NCBI GenBank assembly: GCA_016201065.1
Contig: JACQDL010000027.1
Location: 68,641-132,640 of the forward strand
Reading direction: 5' to 3'
Length of the DNA stretch: 64,000 nucleotides
Origin: Actinomycetota bacterium
GTDB lineage: Bacteria > Actinomycetota > Actinomycetes > Mycobacteriales > JACQDL01
Shown: positions 10,507 through 58,411 of the stretch, one piece after another
Position numbering within the stretch: position 1 is the stretch's first letter
Layout of the letters: every line of letters starts with the position of its first letter
Notes under the pieces: generated by a model
The model's input: only the letters and a program-made list of their open reading frames with translations
Told to the model about the DNA's origin: nothing
The model's database searches: none
Position numbers and translations under genes: made by a program

Positions 10507-12343
10507 GCTGGCCTCCCTCCGCGGCAACTGCTGGAGGGTCCGATCGGGTGGAACGCAACCACAGCTCGAAGCCGAGCACGGTGTCGAACGCACCGAGCCG
10601 GATCGGCACCCCTGACGCGCCCTTGTGCAGCTCTGCGCGCACGGCGTCGGCGTCGATCAGCCCGAGCTCGGCCAGCCGCGCCGACCGCAGCACATCGTCG
10701 ATGGCGTCGACATTGTGGCGCAGTCCCCGGTAGGACAAGGCCGTGTAGTCGCCCTTGGTCCGTCGGTCAACAATGCTCGCGGGCACCAGTTCGTTGACGG
10801 CGTGCCACAACAGCGGCTTTGCCCGATCAGGCGACGTGCGTACCGATGCCGGGACAGACCAGCACGCCTTGACCACACCGTCGTCCAGATACGGCGACTG
10901 CAAGCTGACACCGCATTCCGCAGCCAGCGCGACGTCTGCACGCAGGCCCCGCGCGAAGGCGTTGAGCGACAGCCAGGCGGTCGAGTCCCCGATACCGAAC
11001 TGACCCGGCACGACAGGTGCGTCGTGCTCGGCGGCATGGCCTCGGAGGCGGTCGGCGGCGAGCTGCCGCGCGTCAGGGGTCGCCCACGCGCTGACGCCTC
11101 CCACATCGAGCCACGACACGAACCTCGCCCAGCCGGTGGGCGCTGGCCCACCGAGGACAAGCCGGTCGGCCGCTTTGGTCAGCGCGTCGCGGTACGGCGT
11201 CCTGCGGACCTCGGTAGCTGCCCGGATCAGCGCTTGCGGCGACTGGTGTCGCAGACGCGCCCAGCCGTTCGCGTGCCGCCACAGCGCCCCGACCGTTCGC
11301 GGCCTGGCCAGGTCGGCCAGATAGGAAGGCACGGCCAACAACACGCCGTCGCCCCCGTCCCCGCCGAAGTGGAGGTCCGAACCTCCCGCTGCGAGACGCC
11401 GACGCCACCACCGTACCCAGGCCGTGGCGACCAGGCAGTCAGCAGGCTCATCGACCTGGGGCACGTTCTCCAGTTCCGAGTACGGCAGAACGTCCTCGGG
11501 TATCTCCATCTGCTCATGGATCAGGCCAGGCACCACGGCTGCGACGTGAACGGCCACTGCCGCATCGTCTACGCCGTCCACGGTGAGCGTGACAGCTCGG
11601 ATTGGCCCGCGAGCGTCCAACGAGGCGAGTGCAGCCACGGCCGACGAGTCGAGGCCGCCACTGAGATCCGCGGTGGGCGACTCGACTGCTGTCACGCGGT
11701 ACCCGACCGCTTGCCGCAATGCGACCCGCAACGACTCGGCACCCTCGGCCAAGCCGGCCTGCGGCTTACCAAGGTCAAGCCAGCGGGCCGGAATCGCTTC
11801 GCCCGCACGCGTGATGCGCAGCAGCCAGCCAGGCCGCGCAGCATGGACACCTCGCCACGCCGAACCTGCCCACCACACATCGGCGGACGACGGCAGGAGC
11901 ATTCGAGCCGCCAACCATTTCCGGTCCACGGACCTGCCCACAAGATCTGCTAGTTGCCTGGAGCTCGAGCCGACCACGACTTCGCCGCCGAGGGCGGCGT
12001 AGAAGATCGGGCACTGACCAGCGAGGTCGCCAGCCACCAATACGTCATCTGATCGCACCGCGATCACCACACGGCTGCCGTCGATCGCTGTCAACGCCGC
12101 CGTGTCTCCACGGGCGAGGCGTTGGGCGACCTCGGGCAACTCGGCTTGAGGCGTTGTGCAGCAGCCGACGACGAGCAGTTGGCAACCGGGCACATCGGCC
12201 CGGCGAACGTGCTGCACAGGCCCAGACTGGCCGTGCCACAACCGGAATTCTCCGGCCGTGACAACGGGCCAGTCCGGTTTCACACCTAGCTCATGATCGT
12301 GTGGCGCTCTGCGGTCGACTCTCTTGGCCAACCACCATGTCAT
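10490..12343 (-). CDS. Lasso peptide cyclase C (asparagine synthetase-like)
   Basis: 617 aa. ATP-pyrophosphatase motif DLSGGLDSSAVAAL. Starts 9 nt after the precursor stop. Confidence 0.9.
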   Translation of the reverse strand: MTWWLAKRVDRRAPHDHELGVKPDWPVVTAGEFRLWHGQSGPVQHVRRADVPGCQLLVVGCCTTPQAELPEVAQRLARGDTAALTAIDGSRVVIAVRSDDVLVAGDLAGQCPIFYAALGGEVVVGSSSRQLADLVGRSVDRKWLAARMLLPSSADVWWAGSAWRGVHAARPGWLLRITRAGEAIPARWLDLGKPQAGLAEGAESLRVALRQAVGYRVTAVESPTADLSGGLDSSAVAALASLDARGPIRAVTLTVDGVDDAAVAVHVAAVVPGLIHEQMEIPEDVLPYSELENVPQVDEPADCLVATAWVRWWRRRLAAGGSDLHFGGDGGDGVLLAVPSYLADLARPRTVGALWRHANGWARLRHQSPQALIRAATEVRRTPYRDALTKAADRLVLGGPAPTGWARFVSWLDVGGVSAWATPDARQLAADRLRGHAAEHDAPVVPGQFGIGDSTAWLSLNAFARGLRADVALAAECGVSLQSPYLDDGVVKACWSVPASVRTSPDRAKPLLWHAVNELVPASIVDRRTKGDYTALSYRGLRHNVDAIDDVLRSARLAELGLIDADAVRAELHKGASGVPIRLGAFDTVLGFELWLRSTRSDPPAVAAEGGQRALPA

Positions 12344-12352
12344 GAGAAGTGA

Positions 12353-12499
12353 TCACCAGTACTTCGCGGTCTTCATGTCCGCCGTGTCATCAGCGGCCGT
12401 ACCGCGCGTCAGCGCAACGACGTCGCCCATCTCGTCAAGCCTCGGCGGCTCGTAGCGAACGGGAGACTCCAGAACCTCGGGCACTTCAGTTGCGGCCAT
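12353..12499 (-). CDS. Lasso peptide precursor (48 aa): leader MAATEVPEVLESPVRYEPPRLDEMGDVVALTR, core GTAADDTADMKTAKYW
   Basis: ATG at 12499 preceded by GGAAGGGG. The leader matches YxxPxLx3Gx5Tx exactly (Y-17, P-14, L-12, G-8, T-2). The core starts with Gly and has Asp at position 9. Confidence 0.8.
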   Translation of the reverse strand: MAATEVPEVLESPVRYEPPRLDEMGDVVALTRGTAADDTADMKTAKYW

Positions 12500-12750
12500 G
12501 TTGGCCCCTTCCTGCACGCCCACCCGTCGACCATCCTGCCGACCGGTGACGTCGAGCACAAGATCGGGCGCCAAGAGTAGCGGGAAGGGCAGGATGCGAC
12601 GCGAGGAACTGACGGGTTGTACGTCATCTGGGGGTGCGTGCAGGTGCCACAGCCGCGGATCTTGGAACTGGGTGTCGACACACAGATGATCAAGAATGGT
12701 GGCAGGTCAGTGGGGGCGGGGGTTCCGTTCGGGTGGGTAGCCTCCTGCAC

Positions 12751-41165: not shown

Positions 41166-42857
41166 TCAGAACCGCGCGGGCTCGTGGTAGTCGCCCCACT
41201 CGGCCCGCAGCGCACCGCAGATCTCACCGAGCGTGGCCTCGGCCCGCGCCGCCGCCAGCATCGCCGGGATCATGTTGTCCCCGGTGCGGGCCACCTGCCC
41301 CAGCCGGTCGACGACGTCCCGCGCCGCCGCGGCGTCCCGGTCGGACCGGCGGGCGGCGAGCATCCGGCGCTGCTCCACCTCGACCTCGTGGCTGACCCGG
41401 AGGATGTCCAGGTCCGGGGTGACCGACCCGGTGTGACAGTTCACCCCGACGATCCTCTTCTCGCCCTTCTCCAGCGCCTGCTGGTAGGCGAACGCCGCGT
41501 CGGCGATCTCCGCCATGAACCAGCCGTCCTCGATACCACGCAGGATGCCGGAGGTCATCGGGCCGATCGGATGGGTGGCGCGCTCGTCACCGAGCGCCCG
41601 GATCCGGGCGAAGATCCGCTCCGCCTCCTCCTCCATCCGGTCGGTGAGCGCCTCGACGTACCACGAGCCGCCGAGCGGGTCGGCGACGTTGGTCACCCCG
41701 GTCTCCTCCATGATCACCTGCTGGGTCCGCAGCGCGATCTCGGCGGCCGTCTCGGTGGGGAGCGCGAGGGTCTCGTCCAGGGCGTTGGTGTGCAGCGAGT
41801 TGGTGCCGCCCAGCACCGCCGCGAGCGCCTCGACGGCGGTGCGCACCACGTTGTTGTACGGCTGCTGGGCGGTGAGCGACACCCCGGCGGTCTGGGTGTG
41901 GAAGCGCAGCCACTGCGCCCGTTCGCTGGTGGCGCCGTAGGTGTCGCGCATCCAGCGGGCCCAGATCCGGCGGGCGGCCCGGAACTTCGCGATCTCCTCG
42001 AAGAAGTCGACGTGGCTGTCGAAGAAGAACGACAGGCCCGGCGCGAAGGTGTTGATGTCCAGCCCGCGGGAGAGGCCGAGCTCGACGTAGCCGAACCCGT
42101 CGGCGAGGGTGAAGGCGAGCTCCTGGGCGGCCGTCGAACCCGCCTCACGGATGTGGTACCCGGAGACGCTGAGCGGCTTGTACCGCGGGATCTCCCGGGC
42201 GCAGTACTCGATCAGGTCGCCGATGAGGCGCAGGTGCGGCTCGGGCGCGAACAGCCACTCCTTCTGCGCGATGTACTCCTTGAAGATGTCGGTCTGCAGG
42301 GTGCCGTCCAGCGCGTGGATGTCGGCACCCTGCCGCTCGGCCGCCACGAGGTACATGCAGAAGATCGGGACGGCCGGCCCGGAGATCGTCATCGAGGTGG
42401 TGACCCGTTCCAGCGGGATGCCGGCGAACAGCGCCTCCATGTCGGCCGCCGAGTCGATGGCCACGCCGCAGTGGCCGACCTCACCGAGGCTCTTCGGGTC
42501 GTCGGAGTCCCGCCCCATCAGGGTGGGCATGTCGAAGGCGACCGACAGCCCGCCACCGCCGGCGGCGAGGATCATCTTGTACCGCTCGTTGGTCTGCTCC
42601 GCGTTGCCGAAGCCGGCGAACTGCCGGATCGTCCAGCTCCGGCCCCGGTACCCGGTCGGGTAGAGCCCCCGGGTGAACGGGTACTCACCGGGCCAGCCGA
42701 TCCGCTCGAACCCGGCGACGGAGTCACCCGCGCGCGGACCGTAGACCGGCTCCACCGGCATTCCGGAGACGGTGCTGAAGTCGGCGTCGCGCACGCTCGC
42801 GGCGTCGTACCGGCGCAGCCAGCGATCCCGGCCCTCGGCGATCTCGGATGGGTCCAC
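41166..42857 (-). CDS. icmA: Acyl-CoA mutase large (catalytic) subunit, isobutyryl-CoA mutase IcmA-like
   Basis: 563 aa. TIRQFAGFG (Phe where methylmalonyl-CoA mutase has Tyr) and KEYIAQKEW (Gln where MCM has Arg), the ICM-type signatures as I recall them. No B12-binding domain. Confidence 0.8.
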
Positions 42858-47719: not shown

Positions 47720-47900
47720 CCGGCCGCCGCATCAGCGCGGCGCCGCAGCAGCCATACCGACAGCGCTCCACGTGTTCTCTACTCTTGCGCTTCATCACAC
47801 CTAGTGATCGAATGAATACGGTGCCGCTGCAGCGCGGGAAACGGCACGTCGATTCCCCGTACGGCGTCCGGGCGGCCCGCGCCGCAAGGAGGAGGCGCGC

Positions 47901-48629
47901 ATGGCGAGCCCATCCCGCCGGATCACCGACACGGGCGACTGCGGCTTGGCGACACGCGGATTCCTGGCCCACCTCGGTCCACATGCGCGGGAGACACTGC
48001 TTGGTGCCGGTCGGCCGCTCCGGTTTTCGGCCCATGAGACTCTTCTCCGCGAAGGCGAACAGTCGCAGCATGTACTACTGATCGTCAGCGGACGGGTCAA
48101 GATCGTTGCCACCGCACCGAACGGCTACGAAGCGGTGTTGGCAATCCGCGGGCCTGGCGATCTGATTGGCGAGCTGGCGTGCATCGACAACATGCCCCGA
48201 TCGGCAACAGTGGCGGCCTTGGGGCCGGTCCATACGCGGATCATGCCCCGCGTAATCTTCGACGACTTCCTCACCGACCACCCCGTGGCCGCCAAGGTGC
48301 TGGTCCGGATGGTGGCGTGGAAGCTGCGCTGCGCCAACCGCCGCCGCCTGGAGTTCAGCGCCTACCCGGTCCGGCTGCGGCTCGCGTTGGTGCTGCTCGA
48401 ACTTGAGGAATGGTACGGCCGAAGCGGCCACGCCGGCCGCGACCTTGACCTTGCGCTGTCCCAGACGGACCTTGCTGGCCTGGTGGGCGCGTCCATCGAC
48501 TCGGTCTCGAAGGCAATCCGTGCGTTGAGCCAGGCCAGGGTGATCGCCACCGGCCGGCGCCGCGTCACGATCCTGCGGCTCGACGAGCTTCGCGAGATCG
48601 CAGCGCCGATCGCGGCCAGGTGCCGCTGA
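47901..48629 (+). CDS. Crp/Fnr family regulator (cNMP-binding domain plus C-terminal HTH)
   Basis: AAGGAGGAGG RBS. Beta-roll region LLREGEQSQHVLLIVSGRVKI...RGPGDLIGELACIDNMPRSATVAAL. HTH LSQTDLAGLVGASIDSVSKAIRAL. Confidence 0.85.
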   Translation: MASPSRRITDTGDCGLATRGFLAHLGPHARETLLGAGRPLRFSAHETLLREGEQSQHVLLIVSGRVKIVATAPNGYEAVLAIRGPGDLIGELACIDNMPRSATVAALGPVHTRIMPRVIFDDFLTDHPVAAKVLVRMVAWKLRCANRRRLEFSAYPVRLRLALVLLELEEWYGRSGHAGRDLDLALSQTDLAGLVGASIDSVSKAIRALSQARVIATGRRRVTILRLDELREIAAPIAARCR

Positions 48630-48706
48630 ACCCGTACTTTTCCCTGTTCCTCCACGCGGGACACGCCGACGCTGAACCGACGACGCAACAACGACAACGA
48701 GGTGTC

Positions 48707-49474
48707 ATGAAACTGGATCCGGTTTACCGCTATCTCGTCGCTGTCGACATTGAGAGTTACGGCAAACGCGACAACCAAGGCCAATCCGAGCTACGAGCCG
48801 CCTTGCGTCAGGTCCTCGCCGATGCCTTTGACGCGATCGACGTCTCGGTCGATCCGGCCGAGCGCCAGGATCAAGGGGATGCCTTCCTCACGCTCGTGAA
48901 GCCGGAAGTGTCGAAGGTACGTCTCGTCGACGACCTTGTCCGCGAGATCGAAAACGGCCTACGCCGGTCCAACCACTACCGCACCGCTGAGGGAAAGATG
49001 CGCGTCAGGCTCGCGCTCAATGCCGGCGACGTGCACCTGGACGGCACCGGCTTCCCCGGTGAGGCAGTCGTGGCCACCGGGCGCCTCATCGACTCGGTCC
49101 AGCTCAAGGAGTCGTTGGCACGGGCACCCAAGGACCTCGCCGTGATCGTTTCCGATGGGCTGTACCACGACGTGGTCGTCCACCGCTACCAGGCGATCGA
49201 TCCAGCGGAATATCGGCGTGTGGATGTCGCGGTAAAGGAGTTCCGGCAACCGGCCTGGATCCGGATCCCAGGCCACCCGGCGGCGGAGATCGTTACCGAA
49301 GCTGCGTCCGCGACCGCGTCCCCAGCAGCCCAGCGGCCGGTCACCGAGCGGGACGCGGCGTCGCCGGCCGGCACGGCCTCCGCACTGCCCGGATCGATCA
49401 ACCACAGCACGTTCACCGGGCCGACCAGCTTCGGCGGACCGGCCGCCGGGCGCGACGTCAACTACCACCGGTAG
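48707..49474 (+). CDS. Class III nucleotidyl-cyclase-like protein with low-complexity C-terminal tail
   Basis: ATG at 48707. Motif order YLVAVDIESYG / QGDAFLTLV / RVRLALNAGDVHLDG / GEAVVATGRLIDS follows the cyclase catalytic core. The tail ends FGGPAAGRDVNYHR. Confidence 0.55.
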   Translation: MKLDPVYRYLVAVDIESYGKRDNQGQSELRAALRQVLADAFDAIDVSVDPAERQDQGDAFLTLVKPEVSKVRLVDDLVREIENGLRRSNHYRTAEGKMRVRLALNAGDVHLDGTGFPGEAVVATGRLIDSVQLKESLARAPKDLAVIVSDGLYHDVVVHRYQAIDPAEYRRVDVAVKEFRQPAWIRIPGHPAAEIVTEAASATASPAAQRPVTERDAASPAGTASALPGSINHSTFTGPTSFGGPAAGRDVNYHR

Positions 49475-49717
49475 GTCGCCACGATGACCCTGCCAACGAG
49501 CACACCCGACCACGCCCAACGCACCGACTAGTCCGGCAAGCACCCCGGCACTGGCGCCGACCCGGCGTCGGGCACACGAGCGGCGACCGAAGACGCGCCG
49601 AAGGACGGGGCCACCGCCGACGGCAGCGCCGACGACCCCGATGCCGACGACGGGCGGCCAGAGGAGGAACTGCCCCGGGAGGAATGGAGCGCGGTCCGGG
49701 CTATCCGCCGGGCCGGT

Positions 49718-51688
49718 TTGGACAGCTGGGCCCCGACCTACTCGTTCGGCGGGCCGACCAGTCTTGGTGGCCCGTCCGCCGGCAGGGACGTCAACATTTA
49801 CCCCGGGCTCCTGCGGGCCGCGCCAGTGGTAGGGCTGGTGCCGCCCGACGAGCTGGACGAGTTGCGCGAGGTCCACGTCCCCGGACCTGGCTACGACAAG
49901 GCGTGCGGCACACTTCGCGACCGGCATGTCCTGATCTTGTGCGGAGACGAGTTAAGCGGACGCCGGGCGACGGCTCTCCGCCTGCTCACCCACCTTGCCG
50001 GCAAGGCCGTCTATGGCCTGCGCCCTACCGATGGTCTGGACACGGTCTGCCGCGACCACCGCCCAGACCGCGGCTACCTCCTGGATTCGCGGCCAGGCGT
50101 CAGCGCTGCGACGCTCGACCAGGTCCAGCTGTCAGCGCTGGAGGACACACTGCGGCAGGTCGGTTCCTTCCTGGTGGTCACGATCCCGGCGCACGCCGCC
50201 CGCGACTTGCCGGACCTCGACCGCTACCTCGTCGAGCACGGCCACCCGAACCCGCACAAAGTGCTGGACCGCCACCTCAGGTGCGGCTCCAGCACCCACG
50301 CGAACCTACTCAAAGGATGGCTGGCGGACCCCAGGCTCGGCGAACGCGTCGACCGCATGGTCCGACCGCAGGATGCAGTCGCGCTGGCGCTGCAGCTCAT
50401 GAAGGAGGCCGAGGCTGGGACGAGCCTGGACGACGTCCTCAAAGGGCTCGGCAGCAGCGCCACCCGGAGTGAGGCGCAGGCCTTGCTGTCCACCACGACC
50501 TACGGCGAACACGACCTGACCCGACTCCAGCAGCTGTACTGGCGTGCCTTCGTTGTCGCCCTTGCGGTCTTCAACGACACGCCGTACCTGCCTGTCGTGG
50601 CAGCGGCCCAAGACCTCGCCGAACACCTCGGCCGGACCGAGTACCCCCGCTGGGGGCCACCTGGCAAGGCGGCGATCTTCTCGTTGAAACGCGACGACTG
50701 GTTGACCGCACTCGGCGGAGAGCTCGTGTCGCGGGACCGGGAGGGCGCTTCGGACGAGCAGCGGGTGGAGCACGTGCGCATGCGCAACCGCGATCTCCCC
50801 GCCGCTCTGCTAGACGAGCTATGGACGGCGTACGACGGCGCCCGGACGCCGTTGCTGAACTGGTTGAAAGGTCTGATCCAACCGACGCAGCCGCCCGAAA
50901 TACAGGTCCGAGCTGCGCAGTCCGTGGGCTGGCTCGCGGTACACGACTTCGACTCCATCTGCCGGAGGATCATCAGGCAATGGGCGGGGTCACGCCTGCC
51001 GAGCCAACATATGGCCGCCGCGTGGGCGCTGGAGTTCGCGGCGACCTCCGGCGGGTTGGCACCACGGGTGCGAGTCCTCCTGGCCGAGTGGTGCCGTAGC
51101 GCCAACCTGGCGCACCAGGCGACCGCCGTGCTCGCCTACGGCACCACCATCGGGGTGAGGGATCCAGCGGAGGCTCTCCGCAACCTGCGCTCCCCGGCAC
51201 GGTCCGGCAACGCAACCATGACCGCCGTCGTGTCGCGCAGCGTGATCGACCTATTCACCGGCGGCGCAGAGCACGAGGTACTGAATGCACTCCAAGAATG
51301 GGACGCCGACAACGATGACCGGATACGCGTCGCTGCGGCGGGAGCGCTGGTTGAGCTCGCGTACGAGGCGGACGAAACGGGCACTCCAGCGTTGCTGAAG
51401 CTCTTCGCTGGCGCCGACCCGGCGGCCAAGTCGCTTACCGAATTGTGGCGAGCGGCGCTTCAGAACCAGCTGGTGAGAGCGGATGCCTGGGAGGCCCTCC
51501 GCAAGTGGTTCGTGTGGGCTGACAAGGATCCAACGCTCCAGGTCCCGCTGGCGCACCTGCTCACCGCCATCGAGAGAGTCGACCCCACCCTGCGGACGCG
51601 CGTTGCCTGGTACTTGCGCTTCTGGCAGCACCACCCAAAGGAGCCGTCAGCGACGGCCGAGAAGATCCGCTCCGCATGGGAGGAGTAG
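49718..51688 (+). CDS. Large NTPase-like (degenerate Walker A) plus helical-repeat protein; true start unresolved
   Basis: HVLILCGDELSGRRATALRLL sits where a P-loop would be. GYLLDS is Walker-B-like. The C-terminal ~350 aa is HEAT/ARM-like helical. TTG 49718 is the first canonical start, but coding-like sequence continues upstream in frame. Confidence 0.5.
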   Translation: MDSWAPTYSFGGPTSLGGPSAGRDVNIYPGLLRAAPVVGLVPPDELDELREVHVPGPGYDKACGTLRDRHVLILCGDELSGRRATALRLLTHLAGKAVYGLRPTDGLDTVCRDHRPDRGYLLDSRPGVSAATLDQVQLSALEDTLRQVGSFLVVTIPAHAARDLPDLDRYLVEHGHPNPHKVLDRHLRCGSSTHANLLKGWLADPRLGERVDRMVRPQDAVALALQLMKEAEAGTSLDDVLKGLGSSATRSEAQALLSTTTYGEHDLTRLQQLYWRAFVVALAVFNDTPYLPVVAAAQDLAEHLGRTEYPRWGPPGKAAIFSLKRDDWLTALGGELVSRDREGASDEQRVEHVRMRNRDLPAALLDELWTAYDGARTPLLNWLKGLIQPTQPPEIQVRAAQSVGWLAVHDFDSICRRIIRQWAGSRLPSQHMAAAWALEFAATSGGLAPRVRVLLAEWCRSANLAHQATAVLAYGTTIGVRDPAEALRNLRSPARSGNATMTAVVSRSVIDLFTGGAEHEVLNALQEWDADNDDRIRVAAAGALVELAYEADETGTPALLKLFAGADPAAKSLTELWRAALQNQLVRADAWEALRKWFVWADKDPTLQVPLAHLLTAIERVDPTLRTRVAWYLRFWQHHPKEPSATAEKIRSAWEE

Positions 51689-51690
51689 GC

Positions 51691-52533
51691 ATGTCCGACG
51701 ACAAGGTGCGCGAAGCTAGCCAGCCGCGTCGGTTCACACTGTTGCGGACCTGGCTGATCGACTGGACGCGAGAGATCAGGAGACGACGCCGCACTGAGAT
51801 CCGGATGCCGAAGCACGACACCTACTCCGAGCTGCGCACATCCCAGATCTCCGCCCCCAGCAGCGACGATCGCTTCACCTTCCAGGTCACGGTGACGTGC
51901 CTCTGGTCCGGCCCCGGCGAAGCCGCCACGGTCGCCGAGGCGATCCGGCTGCACGAGCCCGAACAGCGCAGAGTGCTCACGCAAGACCTGCGGCGCATCT
52001 CCCGCACCATCGAGCCGGACGAGTTCGCCGTGGTGGAACAGCAGTTGAACGAGTCACTTGAGGAGCCGACGCGCTACCACGACGGGCTGCTCGCCTGTCA
52101 CACCTGGGTCGAGGTAGCGCCCGAGGATACGTTGCGCAAGCACCTGCAACAACAGTGGATCACGAAATCCAATACCGACGCCGCCCATGCGTTGAAGAAG
52201 AACGCGGTGGGCCAGCTCGACGAGCTGACCAAGGAATGGGACAAGTTCCTACGTAACGTCAGGGAGGGCTCGATCTCCCCGCGTGCGGTGAAGCTTGCCG
52301 GGAACACGAACCGGGTCGGGGACGTTGCCGAACAGATGCTCAAGGACCAGGAGGAAACTCAGGCGAAGCTCCGAGAGATCTGCGCCAATGCGGTAAGCGC
52401 GCACGAGCGGCTAGACCTGTACGAGTTCGTGACGTCCTACGACTCGGCATTGCGCCAACTACTCGACTACCTGCAACTCGACCGGGCGGCGACCGACGGC
52501 ACCATCCGTCAGGACGCTCACCGCGCGAGGTGA
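51691..52533 (+). CDS. Hypothetical protein (280 aa), no family recognised
   Basis: ATG at 51691 preceded by GGGAGGAG, 2 nt after the upstream stop. Basic N-terminus, then a helical/coiled C-terminal half. Confidence 0.55.
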   Translation: MSDDKVREASQPRRFTLLRTWLIDWTREIRRRRRTEIRMPKHDTYSELRTSQISAPSSDDRFTFQVTVTCLWSGPGEAATVAEAIRLHEPEQRRVLTQDLRRISRTIEPDEFAVVEQQLNESLEEPTRYHDGLLACHTWVEVAPEDTLRKHLQQQWITKSNTDAAHALKKNAVGQLDELTKEWDKFLRNVREGSISPRAVKLAGNTNRVGDVAEQMLKDQEETQAKLREICANAVSAHERLDLYEFVTSYDSALRQLLDYLQLDRAATDGTIRQDAHRAR

Positions 52534-53039
52534 GCGGCGACCTGCCAGACGGCGACCGCCAGCGCGCTGACACCGGTCCACGCGAGTGCGCGGGAGAAGT
52601 GCCGGTACCGGGCCACAGCAATCACTGAGAGTACGTGCACCTGCCGCCATGCCTGTTCCAACAGAGCGCTCGCCGCGTCGTCTCCAAGACTGGCCGGATT
52701 CATCCCTGCGACGGAGGGAAACGCGAAGTGGTTCGGGTCTGGACCGCCACTGAGACGGGGACGCATGGCTGCGCCGAGATGCCGGGCGATTGCGAGCGAC
52801 GAAACGGCAAACGCGGCCAGGGCGACGAGCGCCACCCTGGCCAGCGCGGAGCGGACCGGCCACACGTCCGAGAAGCCCTGTGTCACCACGAAGAGCGCAA
52901 GTGCAACGTCACCGGCGGCAAGCGTCGCGATCTTGGTGTCGACGTTGGTCACCCAACCGGCGAAGGCATCGACGGTCTGCAACGCCACGGCAATCTGTTG
53001 CGCCGGGCTGAGCCTATCCTCAAGATCATCTTCTTGCAT
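52518..53039 (-). CDS. Small multi-pass membrane protein, Pycsar TM-effector-like (DUF5706-like)
   Basis: ATG at 53039 with GGAGAGG 8 nt upstream (alternative GTG 53048). NVDTKIATLAAG..., 3-4 hydrophobic helices, RPRLSGGPDPNHFAF and VLSVIAVARYRHFSRAL match my memory of this family. Confidence 0.5.
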   Translation of the reverse strand: MQEDDLEDRLSPAQQIAVALQTVDAFAGWVTNVDTKIATLAAGDVALALFVVTQGFSDVWPVRSALARVALVALAAFAVSSLAIARHLGAAMRPRLSGGPDPNHFAFPSVAGMNPASLGDDAASALLEQAWRQVHVLSVIAVARYRHFSRALAWTGVSALAVAVWQVAAHLAR

Positions 53040-53479
53040 CAGCGTCACCTCTCCGGTCGGGTTCCTTGGTCCTCGCGCCAGTAAACGAACTCGGGACCTC
53101 CGCGAGAAGGGAGAAATACGGTCTCAACCAGATCGAGCCGACAGCCGCGGCGGGCGACCGCACCTATGTGATGATCGTCAGGCGGGCGGGACAGCCCGAG
53201 CGGCCCCATTCACGATCAGTAGGGGAATCGAAGCCTAAGTCGGAGCTGGGTCGCGGGGTGGCACCGGGCGGTCCGGCGGCTCGCCTCCCCAGGGTGGCAC
53301 CGCTCCTCAGCAACAGACCCAGGGCCCATCACATCCCTGACTGGCCGTAGCACGTCCGTAGGGCGCACTGGCGGGTGGGCGTTGGAGGGCCCATCATCGC
53401 GCGAAGCCTTGGCCCGCGTGGCTGCGGAGATTCACCTGGAGTATTGCCCAGCTCGTCCGCGGTGCACCGGGACGACTTC

Positions 53480-53746
53480 ATGGTCGCCGACCCGGGGCGT
53501 TGGCGTGGCACCCGGCTGCTGGCCCACCTCACCGAACGCCTGACCAGCCTCCACGGATTCGTCGACCTCAGCGTGCACACCCTGTGGCTGCTGATGGCCC
53601 AGCGACACTGGTTGGCGCGCGACGACCCGGGACTGGCCCGTAGCCTCGAAGACCGCGGGGAACGACTCCTCAGCCAGGACGGGATCTCCCCGCAGTCCCG
53701 TCGAGAACTGATCTCGGTCCTGTACAACCTGCGCGCGATGGGATGA
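53480..53746 (+). CDS. Small hypothetical ORF (88 aa) immediately upstream of the HD gene; possible gene remnant
   Basis: High third-position G+C in this frame. The stop is 4 nt before the HD start. No family recognised. Confidence 0.3.
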   Translation: MVADPGRWRGTRLLAHLTERLTSLHGFVDLSVHTLWLLMAQRHWLARDDPGLARSLEDRGERLLSQDGISPQSRRELISVLYNLRAMG

Positions 53747-53750
53747 ACAC

Positions 53751-54362
53751 ATGACGGACCAACAGCCTGACACCGGGCACGAGGCCGAAGAGGTCAGCGA
53801 CGAACGGATCACCGGGGTCGCGTCGTACCTGTTCGAGGTCGGCGTCCTGAAGCACATCAAGCGCACGGGCTGGTGGATCGCCGGCGTCAAGGACCCCGAG
53901 ACGATCGCCGAACACAGCTTCCGCACCAGCATCCTGGCGACCGTCCTGGCCGCGCTGGAGGGCGCCGACCCCGCCCGCGCCGCCCAACTGGCGGTGTTCC
54001 ACGACACCCAGGAGACCCGCGTCGGGGACATCCCCCACGTGGGACGCCGCTACCTGACCGCCGCCGACAACGAAGCCGTCACCATCGACCAGGTCGCAGA
54101 CTGCCCCCCGGTCGTGGCCGGAGTCCTTCGCGACATCGTCGCCACCTACGAGGCCCAGGACACCCCCGAAGCCCTCGTCGCCAAGGACGCCGACAGACTC
54201 GAATGCCTGATCCAGGCACTGGAATACCGGCGCCAAGGATGCGCAGGCGTCCAGGAATGGATCGACTCCTGCCGCACCGGTCTCAAGACCACCTCCGCGC
54301 AACGTATCGCCGACGCCGCCCTGACCCTCACCGGCCTGGAATGGCAACGCACCCACGCCTGA
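53751..54362 (+). CDS. HD-domain phosphohydrolase, YfbR-like 5'-(deoxy)nucleotidase
   Basis: GVLKHIKRTGWW...ETIAEHSF...VFHDTQETRVGDIP...AKDADRLECL gives the H..HD..D metal ligands in YfbR order. Confidence 0.8.
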   Translation: MTDQQPDTGHEAEEVSDERITGVASYLFEVGVLKHIKRTGWWIAGVKDPETIAEHSFRTSILATVLAALEGADPARAAQLAVFHDTQETRVGDIPHVGRRYLTAADNEAVTIDQVADCPPVVAGVLRDIVATYEAQDTPEALVAKDADRLECLIQALEYRRQGCAGVQEWIDSCRTGLKTTSAQRIADAALTLTGLEWQRTHA

Positions 54363-54455
54363 CGAACGCCTCGGATGACAGCCGACAGGTCGCCTCCCTC
54401 CGCGAGGAACCCACAAGCGTGTAGGCGCAGTTCACGGACGAAGGTAAGCGGATGG

Positions 54456-55490
54456 TCAGGCGCTCCTCGGCGGGCTGCTTGGCGGCGATCTCCGCCAAGG
54501 TGTCCCTGCCGGGCTGCCGGGACCGAGCGGTCGGCGTACCGCGTCGACGAGCTCGTCGGCGGCGGTGTAGGGGTCGAGCGTGCCGGCCGCCACCCGGGCG
54601 GCCAGACCCGGCAGCGCCGCAGCGCCGGGCAGCTCCCGCAGCGCCGCCAGGGCGATCGCCTCGACCTCGGCCGCCGCCCGGGCCTGCCGGCGGCGGTCCA
54701 GCTCACCGGAGTCCACCAGCCAGGCGCGGTGCCGGTCGATCTCGGCCGCGAGCTCGTCGATCCCCTCACCCCGGACCGCGACGGTCTTCACGATCGGCGG
54801 GCGCCACCCGCCGGCCTCCGAATGCGCGCCGCCCAGCGCCTGCATCTGGCGCAGGTCCCGCACCGTCTGGTCGGCGCCGTCCCGGTCCGCCTTGTTCACG
54901 CAGAACACGTCCGCCACCTCGAGGATGCCGGCCTTCGCGGCCTGTATCCCATCGCCCATCCCGGGCGCGAGCAGCACCACGGTGGTGTCGGCCAGCGAGG
55001 CGATCTCCACCTCGGCCTGGCCGACCCCGACGGTCTCCACCAGGACCACGTCGACGCCGGCGGCGTCCAGCACCCGCAGCGCCTGCGGGGTGGCCCAGGA
55101 CAGCCCGCCCAGGTGCCCGCGGGAGGCCATCGACCGGATGAAGACTCCCGGATCGGTGGCGTGCTCCTGCATCCGGACCCGGTCGCCCAGCAGCGCACCG
55201 CCGGAGAACGGCGAGGACGGGTCGACGGCGAGCACGCCTACCCGGCGGCCGGCCGCCCGGTAGGCAGCCACCAGCGCCGAGGTCGAGGTCGACGTCCCCA
55301 CCCCGGGCGCGCCGGTCAGCCCGATCACCTGGGCGTGCCCGGTGTGCGGAGCGAGCGCCCGGGCCACCTCGCGGAGCACCGGGCTGGCCTGCTCCACCAG
55401 CGAGATCAGCCGGGCGATCGCGCGGGGGTCGCCGGCACGCGCCCGCTCGATGAGATCGGGAACGTCGGCGACCCGCCGCACCGCAGTCAC
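54456..55490 (-). CDS. meaB: MeaB/ArgK-type G3E GTPase (acyl-CoA mutase chaperone) with non-canonical P-loop
   Basis: AVDPSSPFSGGALLGDRVRM, LVETVGVGQAE and NKADRDG are all present. Walker A reads GAPGVGTST (Thr where Lys is expected). Confidence 0.85.
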   Translation of the reverse strand: MTAVRRVADVPDLIERARAGDPRAIARLISLVEQASPVLREVARALAPHTGHAQVIGLTGAPGVGTSTSTSALVAAYRAAGRRVGVLAVDPSSPFSGGALLGDRVRMQEHATDPGVFIRSMASRGHLGGLSWATPQALRVLDAAGVDVVLVETVGVGQAEVEIASLADTTVVLLAPGMGDGIQAAKAGILEVADVFCVNKADRDGADQTVRDLRQMQALGGAHSEAGGWRPPIVKTVAVRGEGIDELAAEIDRHRAWLVDSGELDRRRQARAAAEVEAIALAALRELPGAAALPGLAARVAAGTLDPYTAADELVDAVRRPLGPGSPAGTPWRRSPPSSPPRSA

Positions 55491-55503: not shown

Positions 55504-56682
55504 TCAGACCTTGAGGATGAGCGCGTCGCCCTGACCGCCGCCGCCGCACAGCGAGGCAGCCCCGACCCCGCCGCCGCGCCGCCGCAGCTCCAGCGCCAGG
55601 TGCAGCGCGATCCGCGCCCCGCTCATCCCGATCGGGTGGCCGAGCGCGATCGCCCCACCGTTGACGTTGACCTTCTCCGGCCCCACCCTGAGCTCCTTCA
55701 TCGACTGGATGGCGACCGCCGCGAACGCCTCGTTGATCTCGATCAGGTCCAGGTCGGCAACGGTCAGCCCCTCCTTGGCCAGCGCGTGCGCGATCGCGTT
55801 GGCGGGCTGGGACTGCAAGGAGTTGTCCGGGCCGGCGACGTTGCCGTGCGCGCCGATCTCGGCGAGCACCGGAACACCGAGCTCCTCCGCCCTGGCCCGC
55901 GACATCACGACCACGGCGCAGGCGCCGTCGGAGATCTGCGAGGCCGAGCCGGCGGTGATCGTGCCGTCCTCGGCGAACGCCGGCCGCAGCCGCCCCAACG
56001 ACTCGACCGTGGTGTCCGCCCGGATGCCCTCGTCGGCGTCGACCACGATCGCCTCGCCCTTCCGCTGCGGAACCCGCACCGGGACGATCTCTTGAGCAAA
56101 GATGCCGTTCTTGGCGGCCTCGGCGGCGCGCTGGTGTGACCGCGCGGAGAACTCGTCCTGCTCGGCCCGGCCGAGCCCGAGCCGGGTGTTGTGCCGCTCG
56201 GTGGACTCGCCCATGGCGACGTGCTCGAATGCGTCCGTCAGCCCGTCGTGCGCCATCGCGTCGAGCACCTCGACCGAGCCGTACTTGAACCCGGACCGGG
56301 CACCGGGCAGCAGGTGCGGCGCGTTGGTCATCGACTCCATCCCGCCGGCCACCAGGATGTCGAACTCGCCGGCCCGGATGAGCTGGTCGGCCAGCGCGAT
56401 CGCGTCCAGCCCGGACAGGCACACCTTGTTGATCGTGATCGAGGGCACGGTCATCGGGATGCCGGCCCTGACCGCGGCCTGCCGGGACGGGATCTGGCCG
56501 ACTCCGGCCTGGAGCACCTCCCCCATGATCACGTACTGGACCTGGTCACCGGTGATGCCGGCACGCTGGAGGGCCGCGGCGATCGCAAACCCGCCCAGAT
56601 CCGGGCCGGAGAAGTCCTTCAGCGAACCGAGCAGGCGCCCCATCGGGGTGCGGGCGCCACTGACGATCACGGATCCGGCCAT
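55504..56682 (-). CDS. Acetyl-CoA C-acetyltransferase (thiolase II)
   Basis: ATG at 56682 ([15 protein letters not shown]...). [11 protein letters not shown] active Cys. C-terminal [19 protein letters not shown] and CGGGGQG. Confidence 0.9.
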
Positions 56683-56811
56683 TGTGGGGCCTTTCGACGA
56701 ACGGCAGGCAGGCTGATCTCGCTCACGATACCCATCGGCCGCTGGGTTCGGTGGCGGGCCGGACCGGCCACCGGAGGGGACGCCGTCCGGTCCGCGCGCT
56801 AGCGTCGTGGC

Positions 56812-57231
56812 ATGTTCACCGCGATCGATCACGTCGGCATCGCCGTCCCGGACCTGGACGCGGCCAAGCAGCTGTACACCGGCACGTTCGGCATGCGGGT
56901 GGTGCACGAGGAGGTCAACGAGGAGCAGGGCGTCCGCGAGGCCATGGTCGCCGTGGACGGCGTGGGCGGCGCGTGCATCCAGCTCCTCGCCCCGCTGTCG
57001 CCGCAGTCCACGATCGCGAAGTTCCTCGACGCGCGCGGTCCCGGGATCCAGCAGATCGCCTACCGGGTGAGCGACATCGACGCCGCCTGCGCCCAGCTCC
57101 GCGAGCGCGGCCTGCGCCTGCTGTACGACGAGCCCCGCGCCGGCACCGCGGGGTCGCGGGTGAACTTCGTGCACCCCAAGGACGTCGGCGGCGTGCTGGT
57201 GGAGCTGGTCGAACCGGCCGCCGGCCGGTAG
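56812..57231 (+). CDS. mce: Methylmalonyl-CoA epimerase (VOC/glyoxalase fold)
   Basis: [18 protein letters not shown]...[12 protein letters not shown]...[18 protein letters not shown]. Confidence 0.85.
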
Positions 57232-57415
57232 CACCGGCGCGGGTGGCGGCCGCCCGAACTCCCTTTGATCACAATCCCGCCACGGACCGCCAAAGGTGCT
57301 GGCGCCGGGTGCCCTGACGAGAGACAGTCCTGCCAGGGCCGGGCCGTCGGCGCGGCCCGGGCGCCGCCGTACCGGTCTGGCGCCGCCGCACCGCGCCGCC
57401 GTGGGGGACCAGGAC

Positions 57416-58411
57416 ATGACCGTGCCGTTGGACCTCCCCGACTCGGCCCGCCGGGCCAAGCCGGAGGCGGGCCTGGCCGGCATGGGCGGGACGATCCAGG
57501 GACGGTCCCTCGGGCAGATCGCGTGGCTCCGGCTGAGACGGGACCGGGTCGCGCTGGCCGGCGGCCTGGTCATCCTCGTTCTGGTGCTGGTGGCGATCTT
57601 CGCCCCGCTCGTCGTCAGGCTGCTCGGGCACCCGCCGACGGAGTTTCACGAGGACCTGATCGACCCGTCGTTGCAGGTCGCGAGGGGCCCGCGGGGCGGG
57701 ATCAGCTGGGACTTCCTGTTCGGCCTGGAACCGGTGAACGGCCGGGACCTGTTCAGCCGGGTCGTCTACGGCGCCCGGATCTCGCTGCTGATCGCCTTCC
57801 TGGCCACCCTGCTCTCGATGGCGATCGGTACCACGATGGGCATCGTCGCCGGCTACTTCGGCGGCTGGATCGACACGGTGATCAGCCGCCTGATGGATCT
57901 CTTCCTCGCGTTCCCGCTGCTGCTGTTCGCGATCGCGCTGGTCGGGGTCATCCCGGACCACGGGTTCGGGCTCAGCGGCAACACACTGCGGGTCGCCATG
58001 CTCGTGGTGATCATCGGCTTCTTCGGCTGGCCCTACATCGGCCGGATCATCCGCGGCCAGACGCTGTCGCTGCGCGAACGGGAGTTCGTCGACGCCGCCC
58101 GCAGCCTCGGCGCCCGGTCGCCGTACATCATCGTCCGCGAGCTGCTGCCGAACCTGGTCGCACCCATCCTCGTGTACACCACGTTGCTGATCCCGACGAA
58201 CGTCCTGTTCGAGGCGGCCCTGTCCTTCCTCGGCGTCGGGGTCCAGCCACCGACGCCGACCTGGGGCGGCATGCTCTCCGAGGCCTCGCGGCTGTACACC
58301 ATCGCGCCGAACTTCATGATCTTCCCGGGCTTGGCGATCTTCGTGACGGTGCTCGCGTTCAACCTGCTCGGGGATGGGCTGCGCGACGCGCTCGACCCGC
58401 GCGCGCGATGA
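57416..58411 (+). CDS. Peptide/nickel ABC importer permease (DppC/OppC-like)
   Basis: ATG at 57416. EAA-type loop [27 protein letters not shown]. Confidence 0.85.

Follow-up and report, generated by a model that had tools for sequence, protein, structure and literature searches.

A candidate five-gene cyclic-nucleotide conflict module in actinobacteria, in which a cyclase-fold protein and an nSTAND3-like/HEAT protein share a terminal motif

The DNA analysed here is a 64-kb stretch (the window, numbered from its first letter) of an actinobacterial metagenome-assembled genome (MAG) of the Mycobacteriales, contig JACQDL010000027.1, positions 68,641 to 132,640 of the forward strand. Between about 47.9 and 53.1 kb of the window lies a set of five genes encoding a Crp/Fnr-family regulator (Crp), a protein with a predicted class III nucleotidyl-cyclase fold (P2), a protein with an nSTAND3-like module and HEAT-type repeats (P3), a protein with a predicted SPFH/Band-7 fold (P4) and, convergent to these, a small membrane protein of the PycTM family. 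A first-pass annotation, made from the letters alone, had proposed that these genes, together with an HD hydrolase and a small open reading frame (ORF) beyond them, formed a cyclic-nucleotide conflict system. The features of the module, which extends from Crp to PycTM, are as follows.

47901..48629 (+): Crp/Fnr-family regulator, with a cyclic nucleotide monophosphate (cNMP)-binding domain and a C-terminal helix-turn-helix (48456-48527)
48627..48649 (+): cis-element copy 1, TGAACCCGTACTTTTCCCTGTTC, starting at the Crp stop codon and 75 nt before the P2 ATG
48707-49474 (+): P2, beginning 77 nt after Crp, with the predicted class III nucleotidyl-cyclase-fold domain at residues 1-190 (48707..49276)
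49412..49462 (+): P2 C-terminal tail motif, FTGPTSFGGPAAGRDVN, residues 236-252, a proposed adaptor to the P3 N-terminus
49484..49531 (+): remnant of the ancestral P3 start, ATG 49484, MTLPTSTPDHAQRTD, stopped by an in-frame TAG at 49529-49531
49718..51688 (+): P3, 656 aa, nSTAND3-like NTPase module and C-terminal HEAT-type helical repeats
51691..52533 (+): P4, a putative divergent SPFH/Band-7-fold protein, starting 2 nt after the P3 stop
52518..53048 (-): small membrane protein of the PycTM family (pJV1-SpdB3 type), its gene running towards that of P4 with a 16-nt overlap
53104..53126 (-): cis-element copy 2, which reads TGAGACCGTATTTCTCCCTTCTC on the minus strand, has its core at 53108-53121 and precedes the start codon of PycTM by 73 nt

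Homologous loci (given L numbers where they need to be told apart) were tallied as 15 independent P3-bearing systems, 13 of them cyclase-bearing and all of them actinobacterial. P2 lies before P3 in 13 of the 15, P4 lies downstream of P3 in 13 of the 14 systems in which the contig permits the check (a variant with a TIR protein included), and a Crp of the same clade is found in 11 of the 13 cyclase-bearing systems. The order seen in the window, namely Crp, P2, P3, P4 and a convergent PycTM, is repeated in Carbonactinospora thermoautotrophica and in L086/87, and Crp, P2, P3 and P4 occur without PycTM in five further lineages. Two systems whose P3 shows 28-29% identity have rearranged gene orders: Crp, PycTM, Crp, P2-like, P3 and P4-like in Kutzneria albida, and P2-like, P3, P4-like and three Crp genes in Flindersiella. 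PycTM joins the module in four lineages, in one of them at about 28% identity and with the gene order changed. The recurrence of Crp, P2, P3, P4 and PycTM in such diverged loci shows that the gene set is a real grouping and not a product of chance. Five genes of the proposed conflict set are retained, while the HD hydrolase and the small ORF are not.

The additional Crp genes of the diverged systems are arranged in two ways, as three tandem paralogues after the P2-P3-P4 triad in Flindersiella endophytica (L090:10174-12943) and as two genes flanking PycTM in K. albida (L091). Variation is also seen at the effector positions. On plasmid p1 of Streptomyces angustmyceticus (616 kb, NZ_CP104318; L094:4736-8592), a TIR protein replaces the cyclase before P3-P4-like genes. 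Its tail, GGPHAGRDITY...GGPATYHEGRD, is of a related G-P/GRD type, an OmpA-family gene follows, and both Crp and PycTM are absent from the locus. The exchange of a TIR protein for the cyclase on P3-P4 is a case of effector swapping, and it is the tail-bearing effector that precedes P3. In a further locus (L088:12190-13561), a 137-aa ORF and a Peptidase_C14 (caspase) gene follow P4 in the place of PycTM, and this caspase may be an alternative effector. Outside the window, the module often adjoins integrases, a relaxase, a transposase, group II intron reverse transcriptases, AbiEii or a caspase, contexts which are typical of mobile or defence islands. Decayed copies were also encountered: one (L005:8006-12057) has no Crp, and its P3 and P4 are fragmented into several ORFs, and in another P2 is split over two reading frames (L008:9896-10790).

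The cyclase-like assignment of P2 in the first-pass annotation is supported by structure prediction. The AlphaFold2 model has a predicted local distance difference test score (pLDDT) of >90 over the domain (residues ~30-190), and the top 50 matches of this model in a Foldseek search of the PDB were all class III adenylate or guanylate cyclases (probability 1.00, TM-score up to 0.76), among which a Pycsar uridylate cyclase ranked 25th. Residues were mapped from an alignment of the P2 family profile to the cyclase 3mr7 (E = 0.0013), in which D14 and D58 align to the metal-binding aspartates of 3mr7 and R126 corresponds to the transition-state (catalytic) arginine. D14, D58, R126 and K177 are invariant or nearly so in 118 sequences (41 close and 77 distant relatives), R99 and R101 are also conserved in this set, and such invariance over 118 diverged sequences is not readily accounted for unless P2 binds nucleoside triphosphate (NTP) and metal.

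The P2 family comprises 73 members from actinobacterial genomes and MAGs, all of them standalone proteins of ~255 aa; the copy in the window is annotated in the MAG as HY241_07230. In wider relatives, the cyclase-like domain is joined directly to STAND modules (NB-ARC or NACHT plus TPR), and in one case to Pfam EAD2. The STAND fusions match the 'immune clade 1' cyclases of the Pucsar preprint (bioRxiv 10.64898/2026.08.12.744502). Two Lentzea genomes carry the cyclase-like domain with unusual partners, a PfkB-family sugar/nucleoside kinase domain in Lentzea tibetensis (L012:9989-11800) and an HTH_31 plus TPR module in Lentzea sp. (L009:9980-11845).

Beyond its domain, P2 continues through a variable linker into a tail whose motif is nearly invariant in 41 homologues; tail and linker are both disordered in the AlphaFold2 prediction. 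The motif returns close to the N-terminus of P3 as FGGPTSLGGPSAGRDVN (49745-49795), and at the DNA level the P2-tail sequence and 49743-49795 form a 53-nt in-frame direct repeat. In the window, the P2 tail and its own P3 head match over 17-20 aa (z = 11.4), and z for the own-partner comparison ranges from 5.6 to 17.5 in 10 of the 11 systems compared. The diverged systems of Flindersiella and Dactylosporangium have a different motif, and here the own-partner scores of 67 and 59 stand against 18-44 for cross-system pairs, such that tail and head co-vary. The tail of the TIR variant is similar in motif class to its own P3 head, the match being not significant (z = 0.3).

A second architecture was found in Kutzneria buriramensis (CP144375, L066:9169-15647) and Saccharothrix sp. 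Mg75 (L078:2784-5864), where a divergent Crp adjoins a cyclase-like protein of 240-245 aa with a Q/N/G-rich tail (NVQHNTVTGSGVMFNNQSGSQHIY). This tail matches the extreme N-terminus of an overlapping protein of 479-487 aa (z = 10.1 and 8.9), for which no Pfam match was obtained. The next gene in K. buriramensis encodes a BTAD, NB-ARC and TPR (AfsR/SARP-type) protein.

The degenerate P-loop and HEAT-like repeats that had been read in P3 are supported at the level of the family, while the window copy on its own remains below threshold for both (nSTAND3 14.6 bits against a cut-off of 27.2). Among 20 family members, nSTAND3 is matched in nine at E <= 0.01 (best 7.4e-6) and HEAT_2 in six (best 4.1e-8). 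A comparison of the family profile with PDB sequences aligned the repeat region to the HEAT repeats of alphaRep and Rpn2, and Pfam gave a weak match of P3 to nSTAND3 and none to NB-ARC or NACHT. The Walker A segment, GDELSGRRAT (49943-49972), is degenerate and departs from the canonical GxxxxGK[ST]; a possible Walker B, GYLLD, lies at 50072-50086.

In homologues, P3 begins at or overlapping the P2 stop codon and runs through an acidic, low-complexity leader of ~70 aa before reaching the motif. In the window, this start survives as ATG 49484, which follows the P2 stop by 10 nt and opens a reading frame that ends at the in-frame TAG. An independent Logan assembly is identical over 370 nt, the TAG included, and G+C at third codon positions (GC3) remains high across the P2-P3 gap. 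The next canonical start is TTG 49718, with which the motif is retained. Given the TAG in the leader, the P3 of the window may either restart internally at this TTG or have been damaged recently. We also considered whether P2 and P3 could be the halves of one broken gene. This was ruled out, as each of the 73 homologues of P2 is a protein by itself that ends in a stop codon of its own, and the in-frame TAG falls inside the leader of P3 itself.

P4 had been left by the first-pass annotation as an unknown protein of 280 aa tightly coupled to P3. The coupling stands, with a gap of 2 nt, and the protein can now be given a predicted identity. Its AlphaFold2 model (pLDDT 83.4 overall, >95 for residues 45-180) shows an alpha/beta core (~51820-52125), a long coiled-coil-like helix (52126-52266) and a helical C-terminus. 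When this model was compared with the PDB by Foldseek, the top ~30 matches were prohibitin, QmcA, stomatin, HflK/C, flotillin and vault structures (prohibitin 6e-5, QmcA 3e-4), with a core TM-score of 0.55 to Pyrococcus horikoshii stomatin, which points to an SPFH/Band-7 fold. At the sequence level, profile searches gave no Pfam or PDB relatives, and Pfam Band_7 was matched in none of 70 family members. P4 has no transmembrane segment, and a hydrophobic N-terminal segment is present in only one of the 70. A word-index search returned P4 itself only, and an exhaustive HMMER search was needed to reach the family, which numbers 107 cluster representatives of similar length.

The convergent gene, which had been likened to the Pycsar PycTM effectors and described as overlapping its neighbour by 16 nt, is borne out on both counts. 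It matches the Pfam family at 3e-8 (34.4 bits against a cut-off of 27.2) and the PADLOC PycTM model at 4.9e-16 over 152 of 154 model positions, and hydrophobic helices are present. Of the 77 loci in which the wider cyclase-like domain is the only part of the set present, not one has PycTM.

A short element connects this gene to the rest of the module. With the consensus tGAA-n-CCGTAyTTyT-n-CCT-n-TT, it follows the Crp stop codon immediately and is the sole alignable part of the Crp-P2 spacer in eight systems, with 12 invariant columns. Its exact core is shared by 10 module loci and was not met in any of 85 other loci. When the 64-kb window was scanned at <=2 mismatches, two matches were obtained, one before P2 and one before PycTM, against 0.23 expected. 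The element also lies 73-78 nt upstream of PycTM in Carbonactinospora (L001), in L086 and in the distant Kutzneria system (L091), and thus precedes both P2 and PycTM in all four PycTM systems. This common element is a separate line of evidence for the co-regulation of PycTM with the P2-P3-P4 operon. Copy 1 is a candidate promoter or operator of the operon. In L086, the element upstream of PycTM (12094-12107) is overlapped by a gene call of 189 aa (12081-12650, minus strand) which has no homologue in the other systems and is probably spurious.

The regulator itself was correctly recognised in the first-pass annotation as a Crp/Fnr protein with a cNMP-binding domain, both Pfam domains being well over their cut-offs (cNMP_binding 3.9e-21, HTH_Crp_2 7e-14). 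Its phosphate-binding cassette is intact (GELACIDNMPRSATV, 48168-48212), and the pattern G-[ED]...R-S-A-[TN]-V within it is invariant in 11 system-linked Crp proteins.

Around the module, the G+C content falls as the first-pass annotation had reported: its hand counts were exact on recount (32 of 60 from 52141 and 51 of 60 from 55561), and its six ORFs are present with coding-like GC3. The block 47720-54455 has 67.3% G+C, compared with 71.3% for the whole window and 72-77% for the immediate flanks. The dip is modest and is clearest at codon position 3, where Crp, P2, P3 and P4 have GC3 of 0.79-0.84 and PycTM 0.76, as against 0.88-0.97 for the flanking metabolic genes. The block is flanked by DUF2127 and MeaB genes, and Pfam confirmed both of these neighbours. 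Both flanks are of a housekeeping kind, concerned with acyl-CoA metabolism and transport, with methylmalonyl-CoA mutase, MarR, CoA-transferase, acyl-CoA dehydrogenase and DUF2127 on the left and HD, MeaB, thiolase and an Opp-type ABC transporter on the right. No att-site or tRNA border of the island could be defined, and neither consensus sigma-70 promoters, intrinsic terminators, Rfam families nor tRNAs were found in or near it. Two genes of the region complete the block to the right of the module.

53375-53746 (+): small ORF, 123 aa from GTG or 88 aa from ATG 53480, stopping 4 nt before the HD gene
53751-54362: HD protein, an HD_3/YfbR-like hydrolase (HD_3 2.5e-28)

The HD gene does encode a YfbR-type HD_3 hydrolase, as had been proposed, but it does not belong to the module. 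No homologue lies near the module in any of the 14 other systems, homologues of the HD gene, the small ORF, DUF2127 and MeaB are absent from all 85 loci searched, and the GC3 of the HD gene, 0.88, is native-like. With no linkage to the module at any other locus and a codon G+C resembling that of the native genes, it is regarded here as a native neighbour. Its possible role as the phosphodiesterase of the system was ruled out by the same lack of co-occurrence anywhere. The small ORF has coding-like GC3 (0.80-0.83), no family match and no homologue in any of the fetched loci, and its inclusion as a gene of the system is rejected. Further along the flanks, the large subunit of methylmalonyl-CoA mutase (41166-42857, minus strand) and the MeaB GTPase (54456-55490, minus strand) lie 11.6 kb apart, with the island, several acyl-CoA metabolism genes and DUF2127 between them. 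In the adjoining 689-aa ORF (55504-57573, minus strand), thiolase domains are recognised from residue 302 on and the first ~300 aa have no Pfam match, which probably reflects either a start called too far upstream in DNA of high G+C or a separate preceding gene that has gone unrecognised.

The first-pass annotation had held that the architecture corresponded to no nameable system. This stands for the combination, which we did not find described, while precedents exist for all of its components. The Pucsar preprint cited above describes 'immune clade 1' cNMP cyclases linked to STAND modules; PycTM effectors are known; the pairing of cyclase effectors with NLRs via short shared motifs, with a guanylate-cyclase example, has been reported (bioRxiv 10.1101/2020.01.06.895854); the coupling of cNMP cyclases to Band-7 proteins, with occasional CRP-like regulators, is known in actinobacterial conflict systems (Kaur et al., PMC7159879; PMC8195603); and amyloid-motif signalling has been implicated in phage defence in Bab/Agp (bioRxiv 10.1101/2024.11.07.622273).

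The closest comparison is with Pycsar and Pucsar (Tal et al. 2021; bioRxiv 10.64898/2026.08.12.744502), with which the module shares a class III-fold cyclase linked to a PycTM effector, cNMP-binding modules as readers and, probably, a logic in which a triggered cyclic mononucleotide acts on a membrane effector. While Pycsar is a two-gene cyclase-effector operon, the module has five genes, with P3 and P4 between the cyclase and the effector. Its cyclase is unmatched by the PADLOC PycC models, is without the catalytic asparagine and has relatives fused to STAND ('immune clade 1') rather than in the Pycsar clade. A separate sensor-like P3, an SPFH protein and a DNA-binding Crp reader are further differences from Pycsar, and PycTM is here convergent and optional (4 of 13 systems).

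The P2-P3 pair resembles the BASS systems (Dyrka et al. 2020, bioRxiv 10.1101/2020.01.06.895854) in that a motif of at least 15 aa is shared between the C-terminus of an effector and the N-terminus of a receptor, in that the two genes are collinear and abut or overlap in homologues, in its filamentous actinobacterial hosts and in the existence of fused, 'all-in-one' versions. This layout of motif and genes is what defines BASS pairs, and the published guanylate-cyclase effector is one of their non-Bell examples. In contrast, however, the receptor P3 is not of the NB-ARC or NACHT type but is nSTAND3-like, with a degenerate Walker A and HEAT repeats; its motif follows the acidic leader of ~70 aa instead of standing at the extreme N-terminus; the motif is Gly/Pro/GRD-rich, and its amyloid behaviour is hypothetical; and the pair is embedded with an SPFH protein, Crp and PycTM.

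The conflict systems of Kaur, Burroughs, Iyer and Aravind (2020 eLife, PMC7159879; 2021, PMC8195603) have in common with the module STAND NTPases, effectors swappable via adaptors, cNMP cyclases as signal generators, Band-7 coupling and occasional CRP-like regulators, and a relative of P2 carries Pfam EAD2. The module differs in having no vWA/MoxR/VMAP or iSTAND component, in that its adaptor is a 17-aa linear motif and not a globular EAD, in that its Band-7 protein is separate and placed after P3, and in the addition of a PycTM effector and a shared promoter-region element. Its gene set was not found described in the texts of these papers. P4, lastly, shares with the SPFH scaffolds (HflK/C-FtsH, QmcA-YbbJ, prohibitin, stomatin and flotillin) a predicted core and a long helix of the kind used in ring or cage assembly, but has neither a Band_7 match nor an N-terminal anchor, and its partner is STAND-like instead of a protease or an NfeD protein. 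The combination of a tail-bearing cyclase, an nSTAND3/HEAT protein, an SPFH protein, Crp, optional PycTM and the cis-element was not found in the searchable literature or in PADLOC. PADLOC-DB 2.0 recognises only PycTM, and the accession numbers of the module proteins appear in no searchable paper. The P2-P3 motif, the predicted SPFH fold of P4, the common cis-element and the nonsense codon in the P3 leader are all features that go beyond the first-pass annotation.

From these sequences and predicted structures, we consider it probable, with modest confidence, that the island is a cyclic-nucleotide conflict module, an anti-phage or abortive-infection role being the probable one, in which P3 and P4 sense and P2 signals; horizontal acquisition of the island forms part of this explanation. 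P3, with its nSTAND3-like ATP-binding module and HEAT repeats, and its constant partner P4, as an SPFH scaffold, would constitute the sensing and assembly unit. On a trigger, the 17-aa N-terminal motif of P3 would capture or template the matching disordered tail of P2, bringing P2 cyclase domains together, whereupon a cyclic mononucleotide would be made. In class III cyclases the active sites are formed between the two subunits of a dimer, and the proximity of P2 domains would therefore be expected to switch on synthesis. The dedicated Crp would read this nucleotide and act on the 22-nt element before the P2-P3-P4 operon and PycTM, while PycTM, where present, may also read it and damage or gate the membrane as in Pycsar.

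Several observations weigh against the conflict module as just described. The first concern P2, in which the transition-state asparagine is replaced by Val122; among the 41 close homologues, 40 have Val or Ile here, whereas asparagine is kept in 50 of 77 members of the wider family. P2 is also unmatched in Pfam (E <= 0.1), PADLOC and NCBIfam, the Pfam Guanylate_cyc model and the PADLOC PycC models (E <= 0.1) included, and the only PycC-model match in PADLOC falls on the cNMP domain of Crp. With the asparagine lost and no match to these models, catalysis by P2 is not assured. A search for P2 relatives in phage records and IMG/VR viral contigs, moreover, found none. In P3, Arg stands for Lys in the Walker A of 14 of 20 members, with no Ser or Thr after it, and owing to this degeneracy P3 may not hydrolyse NTP. 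No hypervariable 'sensor' segment was found in P3, the identity being uniform along the protein, and the copy in the window has the interrupted leader mentioned above.

Other points concern the connections between the proteins. PycTM is missing from 9 of the 13 cyclase-bearing systems, one cyclase system is without Crp (L092) and one Crp-P3 locus is without a cyclase (L093). In Kutzneria, no match between the P2 tail and the P3 head is detectable (z = 1.8), and the shared motif is Gly/Pro-rich and predicted to be disordered. Its co-variation could be explained in ways other than amyloid-type templating. Dyad symmetry is lacking in the cis-element, and canonical Crp boxes (GTG/CAC palindromes, TGTGA-N6-TCACA-like) were not found with any consistency in 25 intergenic regions of the systems. 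Thus while the Crp of the system is the obvious candidate to bind the element, its binding there is a guess.

A more specific version of the conflict module would have a STAND-like/SPFH complex activate the cyclase by prion-like (amyloid-type) templating, with Crp, through its private 22-nt element, and a PycTM pore reading the product in parallel. We hold this version only tentatively and think it improbable as a whole. If true, it would amount to a three-layer relay from an amyloid-like assembly to a nucleotide messenger and on to transcription and a membrane effector, and would show by what route an infection sensor is connected to a Pycsar-type cyclase.

The same genes could instead form a physiological cAMP/cGMP circuit for stress or development in filamentous actinobacteria, P3 and P4 being regulatory scaffolds and PycTM an occasional regulated membrane protein. 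Crp-type factors and class III cyclases are, after all, classic parts of housekeeping signalling, 9 of the 13 cyclase-bearing systems have no recognisable adjoining toxin, the neighbours of the module in Carbonactinospora and the window are everyday metabolic or DNA-repair genes, and the lack of phage or viral homologues agrees with such a role. Its patchy distribution and frequent position beside integrases, a relaxase, a transposase, AbiEii or a caspase do not sit easily with a housekeeping circuit, however, and neither do a GC3 below that of the host genes or the decayed and nonsense-carrying copies. The TIR effector swapped in at the cyclase position, a PycTM family known only from Pycsar-type defence and plasmid spread, and the fusion of cyclase relatives to NLR-like STAND modules and to EAD2, which are published hallmarks of conflict systems, argue in the same direction. 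We thus regard a physiological circuit as unlikely, if worth keeping in view.

Distinctly unlikely, in our estimate, is that P2 is a pseudo-enzyme whose domain only binds nucleotide or which acts as a regulatory or dominant-negative subunit of a P3/P4 complex, with Crp sensing ordinary cellular cAMP and turning on the P2-P3-P4 operon and PycTM. The loss of the catalytic asparagine among the close homologues and the lack of a curated cyclase hidden Markov model (HMM) match are what one would expect of it. Kaur et al. report cNMP-cyclase domains without activity in related conflict proteins of actinobacteria, and Crp lies upstream of, and separate from, the genes controlled by the element. An inactive P2 is nevertheless difficult to reconcile with the invariance of the metal-binding Asp pair, the catalytic Arg, the phosphate-binding Arg/Lys and several Gly over all 118 sequences, or with a wider family that mostly keeps the asparagine. 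A further point against it is the dedicated Crp, in up to three copies, which accompanies the cyclase variants and is absent from the TIR variant.

That the module serves a mobile element, by controlling how an integrative or conjugative element spreads, is maintained or exerts exclusion, we judge very improbable. The idea comes from PycTM, whose family is named after pJV1 SpdB3; membership of this family of Streptomyces plasmid-spread proteins means that the module could regulate the spread of an element. A relaxase, integrases or an excisionase-like helix-turn-helix protein are found beside some copies, and one variant resides on the 616-kb plasmid. The relaxase-bearing locus, however, is without PycTM, FtsK-like Tra and other Spd genes are missing from the surroundings of the module, the copies in the window and in Carbonactinospora have no mobility genes next to them, and the P2-P3-P4 architecture is of the effector/STAND conflict type. 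A fortuitous juxtaposition of six unrelated genes, which does apply to the HD hydrolase and the small ORF that precedes it, is refuted for the five core genes by linkage kept in ~15 independent loci down to 28% identity and with rearranged order, by the translational coupling of the genes, by the co-variation of the P2/P3 motif and by the common cis-element.

To our knowledge, how Pycsar-type cyclases sense infection is still unknown. In the conflict module proposed here, the cyclase is genetically separate from the sensor-like P3 and P4 and is tied to them by a short co-evolving motif, and this arrangement of separate sensor genes and a motif tie opens the activation step to mutagenesis and reconstitution. 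The exchange of cyclase for TIR protein on the same P3-P4 pair is a natural experiment in effector modularity. P2, P3 and P4 have no Pfam, NCBIfam or PADLOC entries, and HMMs built from their alignments would let defence finders annotate the module in actinobacteria. The module joins three lines that have mostly been studied apart, cyclic-mononucleotide immunity, the recruitment of effectors to STAND/NLR proteins by short motifs and SPFH scaffolds, and to these a transcriptional output would be added through Crp and a private cis-element.

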